Origin: a virus | DNA: 64,000 bases | Virus record (IMG/VR): IMGVR_UViG_3300027741_000030 | Span: 1-64,000 of that record | Direction: 5' to 3' (one strand) | In this document: one piece after another, positions 19,880-60,537 of the stretch | Layout: each line of letters opens with the position of its first letter | Position numbering within the stretch: the stretch's first letter is position 1 | Notes under the pieces: generated by a model | Database searches by the model: none | What the model was told of the DNA's origin: nothing | The model's input: the letters and a program-made list of their open reading frames with translations, nothing else | Made by a program: the position numbers and the translations under genes

Positions 19880-20104
19880 TTGTTTATCCCCTTTCAAGAG
19901 ATGATATTTGTTTCAATTATACAAGATATCCACGAATTTGTAAATACCCCCGTAAGACCAAATTTTGGCCCTCAATTTTGATCGCTTAGTTCCATTCTAT
20001 CTTTAATTAATTTAGCAATGATGTTGTGAGCCTCGATGTTTTCTGTTTCGCTGCCACCCCACAAAAGCTTTTGTGCTGTATTTAATTGATCATTGATGTA
20101 CTGA

Positions 20105-20425
20105 TCACTCATCCTCATCCTCGTCATCCTCCTCGTCTTCTTCGAACATTGTGTCAACAATGTAGTCACGATTAGTCATCCATTCAAGGACATCATCTTG
20201 GTGTTGTTCGGCACCATACTCCAAGGAAAACCCTTGCCCAGCCTCTACAGCCTCGCACAGGTGGTCCCACATTTGGTCCTGGGTTACTTTGGCCTTGTAT
20301 GTCTCATCTTCTAGGATGTTGTTAATAGTCGACCAGGTCCAAAGCCATACCATGGACAAGCCGAGGTCGGTGGTATCTAGAATCTCTAGACATTTATTTA
20401 GTTTATCTTTATCTTCAGGCTTCAT
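20105..20425 (-). CDS. acidic hypothetical protein with D/E tail
   Basis: ORF track; GGAG RBS. Confidence 0.65.
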   Translation of the reverse strand: MKPEDKDKLNKCLEILDTTDLGLSMVWLWTWSTINNILEDETYKAKVTQDQMWDHLCEAVEAGQGFSLEYGAEQHQDDVLEWMTNRDYIVDTMFEEDEEDDEDEDE

Positions 20426-20697
20426 AGTGTACGTTCTCCAATCGCAAATGATAGTTGATATGTTAGATTATATATATCTGCTAATGTATCAAGGGCACCT
20501 TCACATCTTGTGCGTTCCATTGAATCCATTGCTTCTTCTGATTCTTCTTCTGTCTCAATAGCGCTAGCCAATTGCTGTTCTGCAATTAGCATGAGGTTCT
20601 TTAGTTCCCCGTGCATTATATCTAATCCACTAACACCGTAGTTGACCAAACGTTGTAAATGGGGCGGGAGCCCAATGTCTTCATTATTCATTATCAT
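20422..20697 (-). CDS. acidic hypothetical protein
   Basis: AACGAAAGG leader; motif promoter at 20718. Confidence 0.65.
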   Translation of the reverse strand: MIMNNEDIGLPPHLQRLVNYGVSGLDIMHGELKNLMLIAEQQLASAIETEEESEEAMDSMERTRCEGALDTLADIYNLTYQLSFAIGERTL

Positions 20698-21010
20698 ACC
20701 TTTCGTTAGTAGAGTTCATTATATCAGTAGCCACTGACAACAAATGTTCTGTTGCTATAATTTGTCCTTTAATATTATCTATCTTAGAACCATCATAGTC
20801 TCTAGTGTTTAAGTATTCATCATAGAATTTATCATAGTCCTGGTTAAGACTAATTAGATGTATGTTCATATACTCTAGGAATTTAGAAGACTTTGTTTCT
20901 ATTTTATTATATTCCTCTTGGTCACATCTATAGCATGTAACATTTTCATCCTCCGTATAAAGCATTCCTGCCCCACAGGAGGCACACCATGATTGGTCAC
21001 GCATTCCCAT
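20684..21010 (-). CDS. zinc-ribbon hypothetical protein
   Basis: CASC...CYRC; GGGAG RBS; motif promoter at 21041. Confidence 0.65.
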   Translation of the reverse strand: MGMRDQSWCASCGAGMLYTEDENVTCYRCDQEEYNKIETKSSKFLEYMNIHLISLNQDYDKFYDEYLNTRDYDGSKIDNIKGQIIATEHLLSVATDIMNSTNERYDNE

Positions 21011-21118
21011 AATAATACTCTCCCGTTTCTCTATTGAAGTATCTTACCATAGAGCACTGACATGTAAAAATTCCAGGGACATCTGAACACTCCCAGTAAT
21101 GCTGACATTTAGCCCCCA

Positions 21119-21292
21119 TTATTCAAAATACCCTTCTGCCCATAGGCCTTGCATAAAACTGACAGCCATTTCTAAATCATTCCTTAGTTCTGTCTTATCC
21201 ATTAAATCGGACGGGGTCCTAAGATAAAAAAGCTTTGCGTCATGTACAGCATTAATCATCTTGTTTAGATCGGATTCAGTATAACCTAACAT
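21119..21292 (-). CDS. hypothetical 57-aa protein
   Basis: MLGYTESDLNKMINAV...; GAGG RBS; coupled to neighbours. Confidence 0.55.
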   Translation of the reverse strand: MLGYTESDLNKMINAVHDAKLFYLRTPSDLMDKTELRNDLEMAVSFMQGLWAEGYFE

Positions 21293-21444
21293 TATGCAAC
21301 CTCATATTCATGTAAGTAGTTTAAGACATTGTGAATAATACAATCACAATCTTCTCCGCCCATATTATCCATAAATTCTAAGTGACTAGAATTATCTTCA
21401 TAGATAATAGTAATTACTTTATCAAATAGTTCTATATTGCTCAT
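21292..21444 (-). CDS. hypothetical 50-aa acidic protein
   Basis: MSNIELFDKVITIIYEDN...CDCYIH; GGAGG RBS. Confidence 0.55.
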   Translation of the reverse strand: MSNIELFDKVITIIYEDNSSHLEFMDNMGGEDCDCIIHNVLNYLHEYEVA

Positions 21445-22217
21445 GCCTCCACCTTTTCTTTAGGCTCTAATAATACACTATGGGTCTGACATTTTGCCAT
21501 TGCCTCTTCATCTTGCCAAGAGCCTTGATTACAGTTTGAGCAGAATTCACCGCAGTCATCTTCGCAATAACTCAATGTATCGTAAGACTGGCAAGCATAG
21601 CAACGGTTCTCCCATTCAGCCAATTCTTTTACTTCACCACGGACAATCTCATATTCTCCACCCCAACCTGTCTCTTCCTCAAACTCTAATGTAAGCAGGC
21701 AGTTGGGAACAAGATTACTTAGTTTAGTTAAGATAGTTACAGCAGGTGACCAAGCAGTTTCATATTTGTAGACAAGCCAGTTGTCATCACCTTCTGATTT
21801 GTATTCAAGCAATTCTGTTTCAGGATATTCATCTTCATCACGGACAGCAACATCCCACTTAGTTCCCCAGTTAGATGTATTCCACGAATACCAATCTTTT
21901 TGAGTCTTAGCAAACTCAACAGACTTGCGGAACCAATCAGGGTCATTCTGAATATCATAGTTGCCACGAGAAGGTTGGCAGGCATATTCCTCATCAGTAA
22001 TACCGTCATCCTTATATGAGTGGATGTTATGAAAAGCAAACACAGGATTATTATATTCAACTAATTTAATTTTGGTGGGGAAACCCGAAGAACTAATATC
22101 ACCCATACCATATGTCTCTTGTGCTAATGTAAAAGGCTTATTCAATCTATCTTTAATCATATCTACCTCAGACTTAGGTCCTTGGATAGTTAATGTGTTA
22201 TATACCCAATTTGGCAT
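21441..22217 (-). CDS. DUF1281/YubB ferredoxin-like domain protein with C-terminal Cys cluster
   Basis: MPNWVYN, WYSWN..NWGTKWD, ETAWSP motifs. Confidence 0.8.
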   Translation of the reverse strand: MPNWVYNTLTIQGPKSEVDMIKDRLNKPFTLAQETYGMGDISSSGFPTKIKLVEYNNPVFAFHNIHSYKDDGITDEEYACQPSRGNYDIQNDPDWFRKSVEFAKTQKDWYSWNTSNWGTKWDVAVRDEDEYPETELLEYKSEGDDNWLVYKYETAWSPAVTILTKLSNLVPNCLLTLEFEEETGWGGEYEIVRGEVKELAEWENRCYACQSYDTLSYCEDDCGEFCSNCNQGSWQDEEAMAKCQTHSVLLEPKEKVEA

Positions 22218-22392
22218 TTTATATCCTTTCGTTGATATGGCTTAATTATACAATGGACCACTGACATTTGGGAAGAGTATATCGTGTGATACACACCACA
22301 TCCTCCAAGCTATGTGGTCAAGATCACAGAATTTTCAGGGATTTTATATTGACATCGTAAACAAAATAATATACCCTCAGTCTTTTGCGGGC

Positions 22393-22427
22393 AAAATAAA
22401 AACCCCCCAAGCTATAAGCTGGGGGGT
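22393..22427 (-). terminator. intrinsic terminator
   Basis: ACCCCCCAGC-TTATA-GCTTGGGGGGT followed by TTTTATTTT on - strand. Confidence 0.8.
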
Positions 22428-22543
22428 ATGAATATGGCTGCTGATTTCCAACGAAAGAAATAAACCGCTTTACTTAGCGCCTGGCCCGCAGACTAGTTAG
22501 ACGCACCATTTCATTTCTATATTAAAACCAGGACCAAGGTCCT
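22393..22543 (-). ncRNA. candidate ~150-nt trans-acting sRNA antisense to the shared early-gene RBS
   Basis: TGGTATAAT promoter (22558-22550); 5' hairpin AGGAC-CUUG-GUCCU; seed UUUAUUUCUUUCGUUGG; C6/G6 terminator plus U tract; only tiny ORFs. Confidence 0.6.
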
Positions 22544-22550
22544 ACATTAA

Positions 22551-22919
22551 TTATACCATACTTAGTTGACTGGAATACTTATCCACGAATGCCTCAAGGC
22601 TCGTACTAAATACAACTGTCTGCAGGTCTTCTTCCATTAGAGTAAACGTTTTGTTTTTCCAATCGATAATAGGTACCTTGTGCTCATTGTCTGATAACTC
22701 ATTAACTGTAATGCCCCAACCTGTTTCGCTGGACCACTCATCCCCAATTAAATTAGATATACATATACGTGTTGCATATGCTTCGTCATTCCATCGAGGC
22801 TTTGCTTTAAGAACACAGTCTGCTAAATTCTCTAGCATTCTGTGGCCCGCCCAATGACCGTATAGAAATACAACATTCTCATTGGATTGTCTAAATCCAA
22901 AGTTTGCTCTGTCTCCCAT
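22551..22919 (-). CDS. hypothetical phage protein (MGDRAN... type)
   Basis: ORF track; AAGGCGG RBS. Confidence 0.7.
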   Translation of the reverse strand: MGDRANFGFRQSNENVVFLYGHWAGHRMLENLADCVLKAKPRWNDEAYATRICISNLIGDEWSSETGWGITVNELSDNEHKVPIIDWKNKTFTLMEEDLQTVVFSTSLEAFVDKYSSQLSMV

Positions 22920-22920
22920 T

Positions 22921-23112
22921 TTATTCCGCCTTTGTTAGTTGTTGTTCCTGCTCGTTGTTGAGCAATTGTACCATCTCATGGGCCCAGTCCACAAGTGGCC
23001 CGCCATGGTGAGCTTTATGATGTCCGCAAAAATAAAGAGACATCTCATCTTTCTTTGCTTCCCACATAGCTTGCGCCGCACATTGGTCACACTTAAGCCA
23101 TTCAGACATCAT
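22921..23112 (-). CDS. small zinc-finger protein (CxxC...CxHH)
   Basis: CDQCAAQA...FCGHH. Confidence 0.65.
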   Translation of the reverse strand: MMSEWLKCDQCAAQAMWEAKKDEMSLYFCGHHKAHHGGPLVDWAHEMVQLLNNEQEQQLTKAE

Positions 23113-23263
23113 AGGTTTCCACCTTCAATCATTTCAGAAAGACGATCAAGGATCCAAGAATCAATGTCAGCGATATCAATCTCTGCTAACTTCTCCATAA
23201 TTTCTTCACGAGCAAACTTATACCCGTCTTGAAAACCATCTTTATAGTCTGACATTTTATCTC

Positions 23264-23467
23264 CTAGTATCCTGTCGCTTCTTTGTCTGACCAGTATGAT
23301 TCTTTTAAATTATACTTATCACGAATGCGACTTACTTTCTCAATACTACCAGTTCCAATGTTGAAAGTCAATGGTGGCATAAACTCAGGGTCAAGTCCCA
23401 TAATTTGTGCATCCCAATAAGCCATCTCAAGAGATAGCCTATCGGGAGCAGTTAACTCAAAGTACAT
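23264..23467 (-). CDS. hypothetical protein
   Basis: ORF track; GAGG RBS. Confidence 0.6.
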   Translation of the reverse strand: MYFELTAPDRLSLEMAYWDAQIMGLDPEFMPPLTFNIGTGSIEKVSRIRDKYNLKESYWSDKEATGY

Positions 23468-24099
23468 TATGCCTCACGCACATTACATACTTCGGTGTCA
23501 TTGATTTCAATGTTACCGTTATTTGAATCGGCATAAAGAGCATCGTAGACTTCTGACTCAAGGTCTAACTCATAATCATTCTCAAGAATGTTATATGTAT
23601 ATGTTCCGCTAACTTCAAGAGTTGCAGTAAACAGAACTTCCTTGATTAGTTCAATGCCAAGCGCTTCGGCAATTGCACGGAGTGTATCTTTATCCTCTGA
23701 ATCTTCATATGCTTCACAGATAATTTCTTTAGCCGCATCAATGTTAGATAATAGAGTAGTTACACGCTTCTGTGATTGACGTCCATTGTGCAAATCCCAT
23801 TCAAGAGATGCGACTTTATCAGTTGCATATTCTGCATCTGAGTAACCACGGATTACTTTGTAGGTAACCAATAAGTTAGCATTGTACGTATCAGGAACTG
23901 TTACTGCAGGTGTTGTTGTCTCTTCCATTTTTTCCTCTTTCGTTTGGTTTGAAGGTGAAATTGTAGCATCTTCCACTGACAAATAGGCAGTGTTTCCACC
24001 GCATTCGCATGTGACATTAATCACATCCCTGGTTGATGTATATTCAATTAATGCATCACATGTATGGCATACATGTGTATATTTATTCCAAGTTGTCAT
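23467..24099 (-). CDS. hypothetical protein with N-terminal zinc ribbon; second in-frame start at 23928
   Basis: Leaderless ATG 6 nt after -10 at 24106; internal promoter 23960 and AACGAAAGAGG RBS before MEETT. Confidence 0.65.
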   Translation of the reverse strand: MTTWNKYTHVCHTCDALIEYTSTRDVINVTCECGGNTAYLSVEDATISPSNQTKEEKMEETTTPAVTVPDTYNANLLVTYKVIRGYSDAEYATDKVASLEWDLHNGRQSQKRVTTLLSNIDAAKEIICEAYEDSEDKDTLRAIAEALGIELIKEVLFTATLEVSGTYTYNILENDYELDLESEVYDALYADSNNGNIEINDTEVCNVREA

Positions 24100-24203
24100 G
24101 CGAGTATTGTACACTAGGCCACTGACATTTACAAGGATATTCCAGGGATTTTTTTTGTGATTCGTAACACAAAAAATTTGCCTTTGCCTGTGCGGGCATT
24201 TTG

Positions 24204-24277
24204 CGACCCATATCGGACTTGAACCGACGGCCTCTACCGTGACAGGGTAGCGCTCTAACCAACTGAGCTAATGGATC
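24204..24277 (-). tRNA. tRNA-Asp(GTC)
   Basis: Acceptor GATCCAT/ATGGGTC; CTACC-CTGTCAC-GGTAG; TTCAAGT T loop. Confidence 0.93.
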
Positions 24278-24288
24278 AAGAAAAAATG

Positions 24289-24317
24289 TGAGCAGTTTTA
24301 AATCTTGCTCAGGATTT
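24289..24317 (-). ncRNA. small H-type pseudoknot motif (copy 1)
   Basis: AAAUC-CUGAGCAA-GAUUU-AAAAC-UGCUCA. Confidence 0.5.
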
Positions 24318-24324
24318 TTTTTAA

Positions 24325-25329
24325 TTAAAACGCAGAAACTAATTTCTTAATTTTATTTTTTTCTGCGGTAAGAACTGGGTCAAACCCTGATGCACCAGCC
24401 ATAAGAGTTTCGCCATTGCCACGTCCTGAACGATAATAATCTAAACGCTCAGTTAGTGCATTGAACGCACCCCACTTTGTGCCTTTGATATTAGCGTTAG
24501 TTGGTGAATTATGATAAAGGTCATCAAGAAGAACGACTTTGTTTTCCCACTTCTTGATTGCGCCCTTAGCATCTTTTTCAGGCTTAGGATAGATTGTCTG
24601 AATCAACTTAGAGAATTCAGCATCGGTGATTGATTGAGAATAAAGGGCTTGAGCCTCTTTTTCAAATTCATCAAAGTATCCGAGAGCAAGACCGAGAGTC
24701 TCACGAGCAACAGCGATGCGACCTTCAACAGATTGGGTGTGACGAATTTTGAAAGATTGCTTTGCATTACGCATTGCAAGATTCAATGTGTTTTGGCAAA
24801 CTACACGAACAGGTGTGACGGCTGCTTGAACAGCAACAGAACCATCGTGTGATGTCCAGACAATGAGATAAAGTTTTGTCTCATCGTTAGCGCCTTGTGG
24901 GTCTAATACCATTGTGCGGGGAATATCGACAGTGCCGAAAACAACTTTACCCTTTTTCAATGAGCCAGCAGATTCCCAACGGCAATCAGCATTAGCATCG
25001 TGAATTGCATCAGCGAATGCAAATAATTCTTCATTCTGCACAGGCTTGTAACGCTTGCCGACAGTTGCGAGAACATCTACGCCCTTATTAAATGGGTTAT
25101 CACGAATGACAAGAGATGCGGTAGAAACATCATTCCAAGATTCTGGAATGTGCTCAGTGATTGGAGATAAACGAACATTCCAATTTGCTAACTTTGCCTC
25201 TTCAAGCATTGTAGCGGTTGTAACTTCCTCATCTTGTGTAAAGATTCGGTTAGCGAGATTGTGCCAAGCAGGAGCGCCACGAAGCGCAAATGCAACTTCG
25301 CCATTTTCCATTTCTAGATTATGAGCCAT
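24325..25329 (-). CDS. DUF932 / TIGR03299 phage-plasmid protein
   Basis: MAH...PAWH.L, Y..VQN, TSHDGS, TPVRVVCQNTL, IRHT, GTKWGAFNA.TE. Confidence 0.88.
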   Translation of the reverse strand: MAHNLEMENGEVAFALRGAPAWHNLANRIFTQDEEVTTATMLEEAKLANWNVRLSPITEHIPESWNDVSTASLVIRDNPFNKGVDVLATVGKRYKPVQNEELFAFADAIHDANADCRWESAGSLKKGKVVFGTVDIPRTMVLDPQGANDETKLYLIVWTSHDGSVAVQAAVTPVRVVCQNTLNLAMRNAKQSFKIRHTQSVEGRIAVARETLGLALGYFDEFEKEAQALYSQSITDAEFSKLIQTIYPKPEKDAKGAIKKWENKVVLLDDLYHNSPTNANIKGTKWGAFNALTERLDYYRSGRGNGETLMAGASGFDPVLTAEKNKIKKLVSAF

Positions 25330-25555
25330 TTTTATTTCCTTTCGTTTGATTGTTGATGCAAGTATAACAGGTGGCACTGACATTGTCTAGATTAGTTAGT
25401 CATTTGTCCGAATTGATCCGTGTGATTAATTTCACAAAATTTTCAGGGTTTTCCACAACTGTGCGTAAACCTGTGGATAACCCCATACCTGTGCGGGCTT
25501 CCCGCACCATCAACTGGAGCTAGCAGCGCTAACCCCAGTTGATCGATGTGGTTGT

Positions 25556-26262: not shown

Positions 26263-26394
26263 TTGTTTCCTTTCGTTGGTTGGTTGTTAGAGTATTGTAT
26301 CAGACGGGTCTGACATTTCCCCGAAGGGAGAGAGTTTTTACTTACGACATTGGGCTAGAACACTCTCTGAAACTGCCCCTGTTTCGCTAGTTGA

Positions 26395-27137: not shown

Positions 27138-27422
27138 TTGTTACCTTTCGTTGTTGGAATAAGAGTATTGTACCGCAGGCTACTGACATTACCTAATCTA
27201 TTATCGGCGTGTCGCAGCTTTTGTGAGATTAATCACAAAATTCCAGGGGTTGTGGATAAGTATCGTAAGCCTGTGGATAAACCCTCACCTATGCGGGCGA
27301 GCTGCATATTTATGCGTTACTCTGCATTTTTATTTTTATGTTTGATCTTGCGATTATATTTTTTTTTATTGCGAACAGGTTGCGCCGCATTACTGCGACG
27401 CAATTCCTGAATGCGTTTAACT

Positions 27423-28326: not shown

Positions 28327-29190
28327 TTTGTCCGCCTTTCGTTGTTGATATACGGATATTATAGCGGATAGGACTGACAAAGTGTTAATTTTGCAAGGGT
28401 TTGTCTCAATATGTGGAGCGTGGGCTATGTGATAAACATCACATAAAAATGTCCGATTTGTCTGTCAAACCGACACGCCGTAAATTTTCAGGGTTTTTAT
28501 AACAGTTCCGTAACGACACGCCCGACCCCGTGCCTATGCGGGCCAGCTTGACATTGTCAAGCCGACACGCCGTTTATTCTTTGTTATCTTGCTCACATAC
28601 GCATCTAGTGTAAGCACCCGCATTAAGACGATCACATTTAGGGCAGGTATAAAATCCGCTAGGGTTAGCCATTAGTTTAACCCGTTTTCTTTTATGTCTT
28701 TGATTACGGCAATTAGTAGCGGGATAGTTAAGCCCGCTAGTAGTAATTGGACGGCGGTAGTTAGTAGGCGATTAGTAGTCATTACTTATTCTTCTTTCTC
28801 TTATAAATCTTATAGGCGATTACCACTAGGGCGGTTAGTGTTATTAGTTTCCAATCTAGTGCGACATAGAACCAATCGCTATCTAGACATATACCATAGT
28901 CATTTATTTCTAATGTCATTACATCTCAACCTTTCGCATATGTGCTACAACATTTTTAGAAACCTTTTGTAGGTCTGCTACGACCTTATTCATTTCATCG
29001 GCGCTAGTTGCCTTAAAGTCAACGCCTAGTAGTTGTGCGCCGTCCCATATTGAGTAAGTGATAGTCATTTATAGTGCTCCTTCTTGTAGTAGTGCTATCT
29101 CGATGTCTAGTTGTATTGTATCGGGTAGGTCTGACAAATCAACCCAACCCGCTCCTTCGTTATCCATTATGAACGCTTTTACATATCCCA

Positions 29191-29373: not shown

Positions 29374-29407
29374 TTATTTCTTCTTTCGTTAGTTGGTTAT
29401 TTGGTTG

Positions 29408-59117: not shown

Positions 59118-59875
59118 TGGAACTAATAAAAATAGCAGAAGACATTCATCTATATAAAAATTTTATAGAAGATGAAGAACTTGCTAAAGTAACATCTTTA
59201 TTAAAAAAATTACAAAATACCGACAAAGACTATTGGAAGTCTATATCTTTTTATGAGTCATATTCCGCCAGATACCCTTATGATGGAGAACCAATTTTAG
59301 AAGAATTTGGTTTGCCTGCAACTTATTTTTCTGATCTAAGAAATAGGTTTAAAGAAGCAGCCGCACATGTTGCTAATCAGCCAGTTGAAAAAATGTCTCA
59401 AATAAGTTTTCATATTCAAAGATGGCTTCCAGGTTCTTTTGCACCAAAGCATTCTGACAACAGTGATAATGAAGGAAACATGGGAGCCTTTACAAGAAGC
59501 AGATACGCTGGATTTTTATACTTAAATGATGACTTTGAAGGAGGCACCTTAAAGTTTGAAGCACAACACGGAGAGCTGCCATTAGAAATAATTCCAGAAG
59601 CTGGATCTTTTTTAATATTCCACGGCGGTCACAAAAACATGCATGAGGTTACTGTAGTAAAAAAGAGCCCAAGATACACAATAGGTTCTTTTTGGGACGA
59701 TAGAGAAGAATCAGATTATCCACAAGACGTAAGAGATGCTTGGGCTGAAGAGCTTAAAAAAGTTAGAGCAATTCAAGCTGAAGAAGCGGTAGAGTGGAAA
59801 GAAGTTAGAGAAAAGGGATTACGTCTAACACCAGATGGCAAGTCTATACCAGCATCTGAAGTGGAAGATTTATGA
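59117..59875 (+). CDS. 2OG-Fe(II) oxygenase (P4H-like)
   Basis: HSD, YLNDDFEGG, HEV, RYT. Confidence 0.85.
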   Translation: MELIKIAEDIHLYKNFIEDEELAKVTSLLKKLQNTDKDYWKSISFYESYSARYPYDGEPILEEFGLPATYFSDLRNRFKEAAAHVANQPVEKMSQISFHIQRWLPGSFAPKHSDNSDNEGNMGAFTRSRYAGFLYLNDDFEGGTLKFEAQHGELPLEIIPEAGSFLIFHGGHKNMHEVTVVKKSPRYTIGSFWDDREESDYPQDVRDAWAEELKKVRAIQAEEAVEWKEVREKGLRLTPDGKSIPASEVEDL

Positions 59876-60537
59876 TAGACGAAAAATCAAATAAATTTGA
59901 TCCAAATGACATGTATCACATGTTTATACCAAATGTTTTAGAGAACAATATTTGGTATTATAAAAATGTTGTAAGCTATCCAAAAGAGCTATTAGATTTT
60001 ATTAATGAAGTTGATAATGATGCTAGAAGCCACGGTAAAATAACAAAGTGGTTCCCTTGGACTGCTAGCAATAATGGCTCTTTAATATACGGAGATAACA
60101 AAAATGTTCTACCTTCAAATATGAAAGATGTCACAGACGCTGGAAGACTAGATCAAAAAATACTATATATATCAAATAGCATAAAGATGGCTTTTCAAAT
60201 GTGTCTTGATAATTACTTTGCTTCAAGAAATATTGATTCGTCAAATTATGTTTTGCCAATGAGTGAGATTCCATTAAGAAGGTGGGGAGTGGGTCCTGGA
60301 ATGGGTCCTCATTGTGATAACTATGACGGGCATACAAATCTTGCTTTTTCTATGATTCTATATTTAAACAACAACTACGAAGGCGGGGAAATCGAGTTTC
60401 CAAATCAGGGAGTGTCTTTAAAGCCAGATGAGGGCAGCCTAATTATATTCCCAAGCAGTGAGCCATACCTTCACAAAGTAAATGAGATTAAATCGGGAGA
60501 TAGGTACACATCACATCTTTCAGTATATACAAGATAG
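59872..60537 (+). CDS. 2OG-Fe(II) oxygenase (P4H-like)
   Basis: HCD, YLNNNYEGGE, HKV, RY. Confidence 0.85.
   Translation: MIDEKSNKFDPNDMYHMFIPNVLENNIWYYKNVVSYPKELLDFINEVDNDARSHGKITKWFPWTASNNGSLIYGDNKNVLPSNMKDVTDAGRLDQKILYISNSIKMAFQMCLDNYFASRNIDSSNYVLPMSEIPLRRWGVGPGMGPHCDNYDGHTNLAFSMILYLNNNYEGGEIEFPNQGVSLKPDEGSLIIFPSSEPYLHKVNEIKSGDRYTSHLSVYTR

Follow-up and report, generated by a model that had tools for sequence, protein, structure and literature searches.

A conserved three-way junction RNA of lake phages with an invariant loop seed complementary to a tag in early-gene ribosome-binding sites

The early-gene block and a candidate RNA gene

The DNA studied here belongs to a single-contig virus record of 115,655 bp with 36% G+C (IMG/VR record IMGVR_UViG_3300027741_000030), and its opening 64 kb (positions 1 to 64,000), the whole stretch that was analysed, is referred to as the window. 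Tail-fibre, ribonucleotide reductase, and DUF932 genes are present in the window, as is a WhiB gene at 1993-2166, and since the phage encodes WhiB, its gene content points to an actinobacterial host. A block of minus-strand genes occupies approximately 17.8-29.7 kb. Five tRNA genes are found in the window; one of them, a tRNA-Asp gene at 24203-24277 (minus strand), lies within this early block, directly 3' of a promoter of the TGTCAG type described below. A blastn search of the phage GenBank collection with positions 21400-23300 as query gave zero matches, while about 200 relatives were recovered from IMG/VR by each of the two proteins flanking the RNA gene. The DNA sources that contain the RNA region are all freshwater or lake samples.

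In the initial annotation, a self-contained unit running from promoter to terminator was placed on the minus strand at 22393-22558, and every sequence feature listed for it is present. Its features, with the core defined by covariance model R1 and alignment A2, are the following:

22550..22558, minus strand: extended -10 promoter box TGGTATAAT, overlapping the TAA stop of gene 22551-22919
22530..22543, minus strand: 5' hairpin P0, 5 bp with a 4-nt loop, followed by a short U-rich stretch
22434..22509, minus strand: core three-way junction
22509-22505 with 22438-22434, minus strand: P1, closing helix of the core junction
22504-22499 with 22482-22477, minus strand: P2, with an inner hairpin at 22493-22484
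22476-22469, minus strand: invariant 8-nt junction UAAGUAAA
22468-22462 with 22447-22440, minus strand: P3, GC+GGUUU paired with AAAUC+GC
22448..22461, minus strand: 14-nt P3 loop, carrying the seed CUUUCGUU at 22457-22450
22393..22427, minus strand: intrinsic terminator, a 9-bp G+C-rich stem (22427-22402) followed by a U tract

The predicted promoter was indeed found as TGGTATAAT at 22558-22550 on the minus strand. The 11-nt stretch that holds this box is unchanged in nearly all of 56 distinct intergenic sequences, from relatives in which the upstream protein is just 64-93% identical, and a TGnTAnnnT box precedes the core in 66 of 82 distinct contexts. The AGGAC/GUCCU hairpin postulated at the start of the RNA is present at 22543-22530 (P0), and all five of its pairs change on both sides among relatives. 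P0 is optional: it is missing in some relatives, where the -10 box stands 8-12 nt from the core, and it was also scored as a weak terminator by the terminator scan, which leaves two readings of P0, the RNA's 5' end or a weak terminator of the upstream gene. At the other end, the strong terminator is borne out by the stem at 22427-22402 and its U tract, and 76 of 82 distinct relatives have a hairpin with a T-run after the core.

The unit was also said to be non-coding, and it contains no minus-strand ORF of at least 30 aa. The sole minus-strand frames noted are two TTG frames of 24 and 28 aa, both of which run across the terminator, and the indels seen in the RNA among relatives are not multiples of three. 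Judged from its sequence, the unit has the make-up of an sRNA gene, i.e., a promoter and an intrinsic terminator of its own and no conserved ORF. Immediately 3' of the terminator lies a 21-nt motif (22372-22392, minus strand) that has no second copy in the window when up to 3 mismatches are allowed and is also found at the same site in relatives such as L029, L065, and L094; it may be a regulator site 5' of the next promoter.

Fold, conservation, and distribution of the RNA

Covariance model R1 was built from 33 distinct sequences with a hand-set structure, and with it the structured RNA was detected in 94 of 100 related IMG/VR phage loci. At least 118 IMG/VR contigs contain the RNA (the actual number being more than 118), and the present genome contains one copy; a second model match at 113751-113863 was rejected (E = 0.32). 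In the model-fitted alignment A2, standard pairs make up 95.3% of the cells, compared with at most 50.5% when the partners are slid; 16 of 26 pairs change on both sides, and the covariation score is 0.397, compared with at most 0.09 for slid partners. A similar outcome was obtained with the MAFFT alignment A1, which was fitted to no structure (93.2% paired versus at most 47% with slid partners). The comparison thus argues for a conserved secondary structure that is maintained by compensatory changes, as predicted for an sRNA. The gap between the flanking genes keeps a length of approximately 330 nt, even where the flanking proteins are down to 64% and 43% identity, and the RNA region is its best conserved part, exceeding the flanking proteins in conservation.

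Single-sequence folding does not reproduce the comparative structure: compared with shuffled sequences, the whole unit has z = -2.1 and the core alone z = -0.1. RNAalifold on the MAFFT alignment recovered only P1, P2, and the base of P3. This incomplete result arises because the variable hairpins are misaligned, a misalignment that was overcome by the hand-set structure and the covariance model.

A cmscan search of positions 20000-25000 against Rfam 15 (including C4, 6C, riboswitches, SRP, and tmRNA) left the body of the RNA unmatched at E of up to 10. The sole match was ClpQY_promoter on the terminator, which at 14.8 bits against a threshold of 42 is at chance level. SRP RNA, considered for a shared GCAGCC-type string, was rejected, having zero Rfam matches. 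When 185,579 species genomes were scanned, 37 pattern matches were obtained, the true members among them being three short MAG contigs, which are probably mis-binned phage DNA; no host-chromosome copy of the RNA was found among these genomes. The RNA family is restricted to abundant lake phages of actinobacteria, and no description of it was found in Rfam or in the literature searched.

An invariant seed and a shared tag in early-gene leaders

The P3 hairpin combines a changing stem with a constant loop. The stem occurs in at least eight different, mutually compensating sequences, and its loop keeps the seed CUUUCGUU, which 74 of 75 distinct family sequences share unchanged, with variation in the stem and in the loop flanks. 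The conservation of the seed that the initial annotation anticipated for related phages is therefore observed, and its position in a loop also holds; the AUUUC/GAAAU stem that was drawn around it can form locally, yet it is not the covarying helix. As had likewise been proposed, the seed is the exact complement of a tag, AACGAAAG, that is common to the ribosome-binding sites of early genes. A conserved, predictably single-stranded seed with complementarity to translation-initiation regions is a further property expected of an antisense sRNA.

In the window, AACGAAAG occurs 10 times where 1.5 copies are expected, and none of 100 shuffles reaches 10. Eight of these copies lie on the minus strand between 20700 and 29390, each 7-9 nt 5' of an ATG, and the ATGs are located where the eight tagged starts had been listed:

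20700..20707, minus strand: tag AACGAAAG before ATG 20691 (or 20697)
22226..22233, minus strand: tag in the leader of gene 21441-22217 (DUF1281_C-like)
23937..23944, minus strand: tag before ATG 23928
25339..25346, minus strand: tag before ATG 25329 (DUF932 gene)
26270..26277, minus strand: tag before ATG 26262
27145..27152, minus strand: tag before ATG 27137
28336..28343, minus strand: tag before ATG 28326
29383..29390, minus strand: tag before ATG 29373, with no TGTCAG-type promoter directly 5'

The rest of the whole genome has one further copy only on the minus strand, and the single plus-strand copy in the block is the one within the RNA gene. That this plus-strand copy might itself be the ribosome-binding site of a peptide, a possibility raised earlier, fails on the lack of any ATG, GTG, or TTG within 20 nt of it. 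The leader of gene 21441-22217 (22200-22245, minus strand), which is invariant among relatives, can fold into a 5-bp hairpin with an 8-nt loop that is exactly the tag, and a loop-loop contact with the RNA would therefore be possible.

Many of the tagged genes share a promoter class. Between 17 and 30.5 kb, 14 promoters of the form TGTCAG-N10-TAnnnT without a -35 box were found on the minus strand (e.g., 22245-22266); the tag follows 7 of these 14, and 7 of the 8 tags have such a promoter upstream. The same class is present in two related complete genomes (13 sites in an early-region scan of G001, and 7 in G005). A TGTCAGTG-like box about 8 nt 5' of TAnnnT without a -35 box is the pattern of RecA-NDp/PafBC promoters, and these sites match it. 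On the strength of this motif resemblance, and of the WhiB gene as a pointer to an actinobacterial host, the target promoters may be activated by the PafBC of the uncultured host. PafBC acts via the non-palindromic RecA-NDp motif (10.1101/612655).

Seed and tag co-occur across lineages. Of 616 TGTCAG-type promoters in seed-bearing loci, 328 are followed by AACGAAAG. The scaffold of the RNA (P1, P2, the base of P3, and the junction UAAGUAAA) persists without the seed in two lineages: in lineage X, which includes a complete 108-kb genome, P3 is a stub, and in lineage Z, the P3 loop differs from the seed, while the model score is still 42-54 bits. The tag follows 1 of 22 TGTCAG-type promoters in lineage X and 0 of 18 in lineage Z (1 of 40 jointly), in line with the expected link, which here represents two independent losses only. 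The ribosome-binding sites of lineage X are plain GAAAGG, and many genes of lineage Z are leaderless, with several TGTCAG-type promoters 6-7 nt before the ATG, from which messages would start without a leader. Because plain GAAAGG suffices in lineage X and the AAC bases of the tag are too far out to pair with the 3' end of 16S rRNA, the AAC extension is not needed for ribosome binding. A search for targets of the lineage Z loop gave none.

Two further relatives depart from the usual arrangement. In L045, the seed is altered and the leaders are unaltered. In L094, a different structured RNA with the same GGUG...GCAGCC closure stands in place of the syntenic one, and a separate 12-bp hairpin about 2.5 kb downstream of it displays the same seed in an 11-nt loop (z = -4.0) and is followed by two -10-like boxes (the sites concerned are L094:6350-6395 and L094:3698-3830).

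The core pairing of seed and tag comprises 8 AU-rich bp. In a duplex scan of the loop against both genome strands (231 kb), the 45 best sites include all eight leaders, and no other site among these best ones has the exact 8-nt complement immediately in front of a start codon. The best duplex is formed with the leader of 26262 (-18.2 kcal/mol, 13 bp); most leaders are predicted at -12.7 to -15.7 kcal/mol (6 of 8 at -12.7 to -14.7), and for most leaders some 25 chance sites within genes reach equal energies. Covariation between seed and leaders, which had been suggested as a check, is seen as joint presence and absence, and beyond the seed it is weak and confined to one flanking position. Opposite the loop base 5' of the seed, the leader has G in 57 of 65 cases if that loop base is C and in 114 of 172 if it is U, a weak signal because the sequences are related to one another. 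No compensatory change of seed and tag was found among the relatives, in which the two never vary together. These sequence comparisons directly establish that the RNA is conserved and folded, that it exposes an invariant seed, that this seed is complementary to the tag, and that the two co-occur.

Proposed function, alternatives, and relation to known systems

The initial annotation interpreted the unit as an sRNA directed against a ribosome-binding leader shared by early genes. The conserved RNA, its fold, the looped seed, its complementarity, and the co-occurrence with the tag speak for that reading, and the flank covariation and the leader duplex energies contribute little to it. With moderate confidence, the RNA is considered here to be a trans-acting sRNA that would repress tagged early mRNAs by covering their ribosome-binding sites. 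We infer that a discrete phage sRNA of about 150 nt would be transcribed on the early-gene strand from the activator-independent extended -10 promoter and would end at the strong intrinsic terminator. It would fold into a three-way junction, of which the third hairpin presents CUUUCGUU in an open loop, and this loop may pair in vivo with AACGAAAG as it occurs in the short leaders at the 5' ends of eight or more early mRNAs. Such pairing would cover bases 1-5 of the GAAAGG Shine-Dalgarno sequence and keep the 30S subunit from binding, as a result of which the translation of the tagged genes is proposed to drop together. Since the AAC bases cannot be contacted by the 16S rRNA 3' end, they are proposed to be an address that separates tagged phage messages from others. 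As for timing, promoters with an extended -10 box work without an activator, and the RNA could thus build up from the onset of infection; such early accumulation could impose a delay or a ceiling instead of a late switch.

An unlikely but still appreciable alternative is that the scaffold is the working part of the RNA, binding a phage or host protein (a nuclease, a helicase, or a ribosome factor) that the loop tethers to the messages as cargo, or that pairing activates or stabilises the messages. The preservation of the scaffold in two lineages with a seedless P3 loop is in its favour and implies that some function of the RNA is independent of this pairing, and the junction bases, unpaired yet invariant, look like a binding surface. 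Pairing over a Shine-Dalgarno sequence, however, normally represses translation, as is the case for anti-Shine-Dalgarno sRNAs, and the leaders, which measure about 20 nt and for the most part lack structure, offer no inhibitory fold that an activating RNA could open.

The transcript data bear on a second alternative, namely that the region serves gene 22551-22919 only, as its structured 3' untranslated end and terminator, and has no function in trans. The RNA region is present in RNA-library contigs of four metatranscriptome studies (unstranded Logan contigs without defined ends), and some of these bridge the 3' end of the upstream gene and the RNA. Such continuation from the gene into the element means that the RNA could be a read-through or 3'UTR product, or that the signal could be DNA carry-over, and the resemblance of P0 to a weak terminator fits a 3'UTR as well. 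In run X20, the core is deeply covered, the terminator gap thinly, and the body of the upstream gene not at all, a profile that is unfit for ranking expression or mapping ends and in which uncovered parts prove nothing. Against a mere 3'UTR, the -10 box is kept at the nucleotide level across diverged coding ends, the element is found elsewhere, beside other genes, in L099, L135, and L146, and the loop sequence is invariant where terminator stems change freely. This explanation is considered to have little probability.

Slightly less credible again is that AACGAAAG is a DNA operator of a transcription factor, with the reverse copy being autoregulatory and the RNA complementarity incidental. The motif does lie just 3' of promoters, and a double-stranded DNA site is equivalent in either orientation. 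On the other hand, the motif stands at a fixed 7-9 nt from the start codon, while its distance from the -10 box varies from 10 to 16 nt, so the tag is tied to translation and not to the promoter, and one tag copy is without an upstream promoter. Moreover, the leader copies are all in one orientation, the reverse copy is always in the loop of a covarying hairpin at a variable distance from its own promoter, and the independent hairpin of L094 has the same arrangement. The least plausible reading, a ligand-sensing or otherwise cis-acting (riboswitch-like) leader governing read-through into gene 21441-22217, is suggested by a three-way junction with invariant junction bases and a terminator upstream of a gene, but an aptamer with a mutually exclusive platform directly upstream of an ORF was not found: that gene has its own promoter about 130 nt beyond the terminator, no conserved alternative anti-terminator pairing was detected, the U tract directly follows P1 in lineage Z, the element relocates relative to genes, and no Rfam riboswitch matched.

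As a proposed anti-ribosome-binding-site sRNA, the RNA of the lake phages resembles several known regulators. RsaE/RoxS, the loops of S. aureus RNAIII, and the actinobacterial 6C RNA are sRNAs with anti-Shine-Dalgarno loops in Gram-positive bacteria that do without Hfq, and actinobacteria are not known to have Hfq. They share with the present RNA a pyrimidine-rich loop seed that pairs with the Shine-Dalgarno regions of several mRNAs. These RNAs, however, are cellular and direct C-rich seeds at generic G-rich sites, whereas the lake-phage seed is U-rich, extends 3 nt past the ribosomal pairing window, and addresses the phage's own targets.

Among phage regulators, the c4 antisense RNA of phages P1/P7 (Rfam C4) is a small phage-encoded structured RNA (reviewed in PMC12197685). 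Its exposed loops similarly act in trans, base-pairing with the ribosome-binding region of a message of the phage itself, and shut off a gene set, but c4 is directed at a single operon (icd-ant), arises by processing of that same transcript, and functions in immunity, whereas the lake-phage RNA has its own predicted promoter and terminator, a different fold, at least eight dispersed tagged targets, and no Rfam match. In phage T4, RegA is a translational repressor and RegB a nuclease that cuts GGAG in early ribosome-binding sites (PMC3014915). Here too, many unrelated early messages are switched off jointly via a feature of their ribosome-binding sites; the T4 effectors are proteins, whereas the effector proposed for the lake phages is an RNA.

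The pattern of targets is most like that of the SAS motifs of cluster K phages. SAS is a private motif that overlaps and extends the Shine-Dalgarno sequence 3-9 nt before the starts of 11-19 non-structural genes, its copies are in one orientation apart from a single reverse copy, and its authors left undecided whether an RNA or a protein factor reads it (PMC3203893; PMC11373665; PMC12699233). SAS differs in being 13 nt long and G+C-rich, in belonging to another phage group, and in having no described partner RNA; its reverse copy is in the leader of a late transcript, that of the lake phages in a stand-alone terminated unit. The tag found here, AACGAAAG(G), does not have the 13-nt SAS consensus GGGATAGGAGCCC, and is SAS-like in function in an unrelated phage. 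In mechanism, the closest systems are c4 and the anti-Shine-Dalgarno sRNAs, in logic RegA/RegB, and in target pattern SAS, and the RNA is a member of none of them.

In Mycobacterium phage Anaya (JF704106), the sole reverse SAS, at 59870-59882 (also indexed as L350:34871-34883; alignment A3), is the 10-nt loop of a 6-bp G+C hairpin on the gene strand. The hairpin lies within a 385-nt ORF-free gap between gp96 and gp97 that is conserved in 182 cluster K phages, and the wider 121-nt fold around it has z = -4.6. Amohnition and Krueger have a changed loop, and Yuna has lost it. The homologous gap in Adephagia (genes 92/93) holds the start of late transcription by RNA-seq (PMC11373665), and the Anaya hairpin could be an anti-SAS element on the late transcript.

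It is tentatively suggested, as a conjecture with a real but less than even prospect, that actinobacteriophages repeatedly use an addressed ribosome-binding site, in which a private extension of the Shine-Dalgarno sequence marks the early set and an RNA with the mirror loop silences it. If so, the freshwater RNA family would be its clearest case and an RNA counterpart of T4 RegA/RegB, and the same principle would explain the cluster K SAS motifs, which have been unexplained for 15 years. Few phage-encoded sRNAs have a defined regulon, and the known ones mostly target host genes or a single phage operon; the present RNA family is large, and its predicted regulon is written into the early-gene leaders of the phage itself. 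A concrete hypothesis is also provided for cluster K SAS, in phages for which a laboratory host, genetic tools, and published RNA-seq exist. If true, one loop and one 8-nt tag would constitute a simple, portable translational switch for gene sets in Hfq-less hosts.
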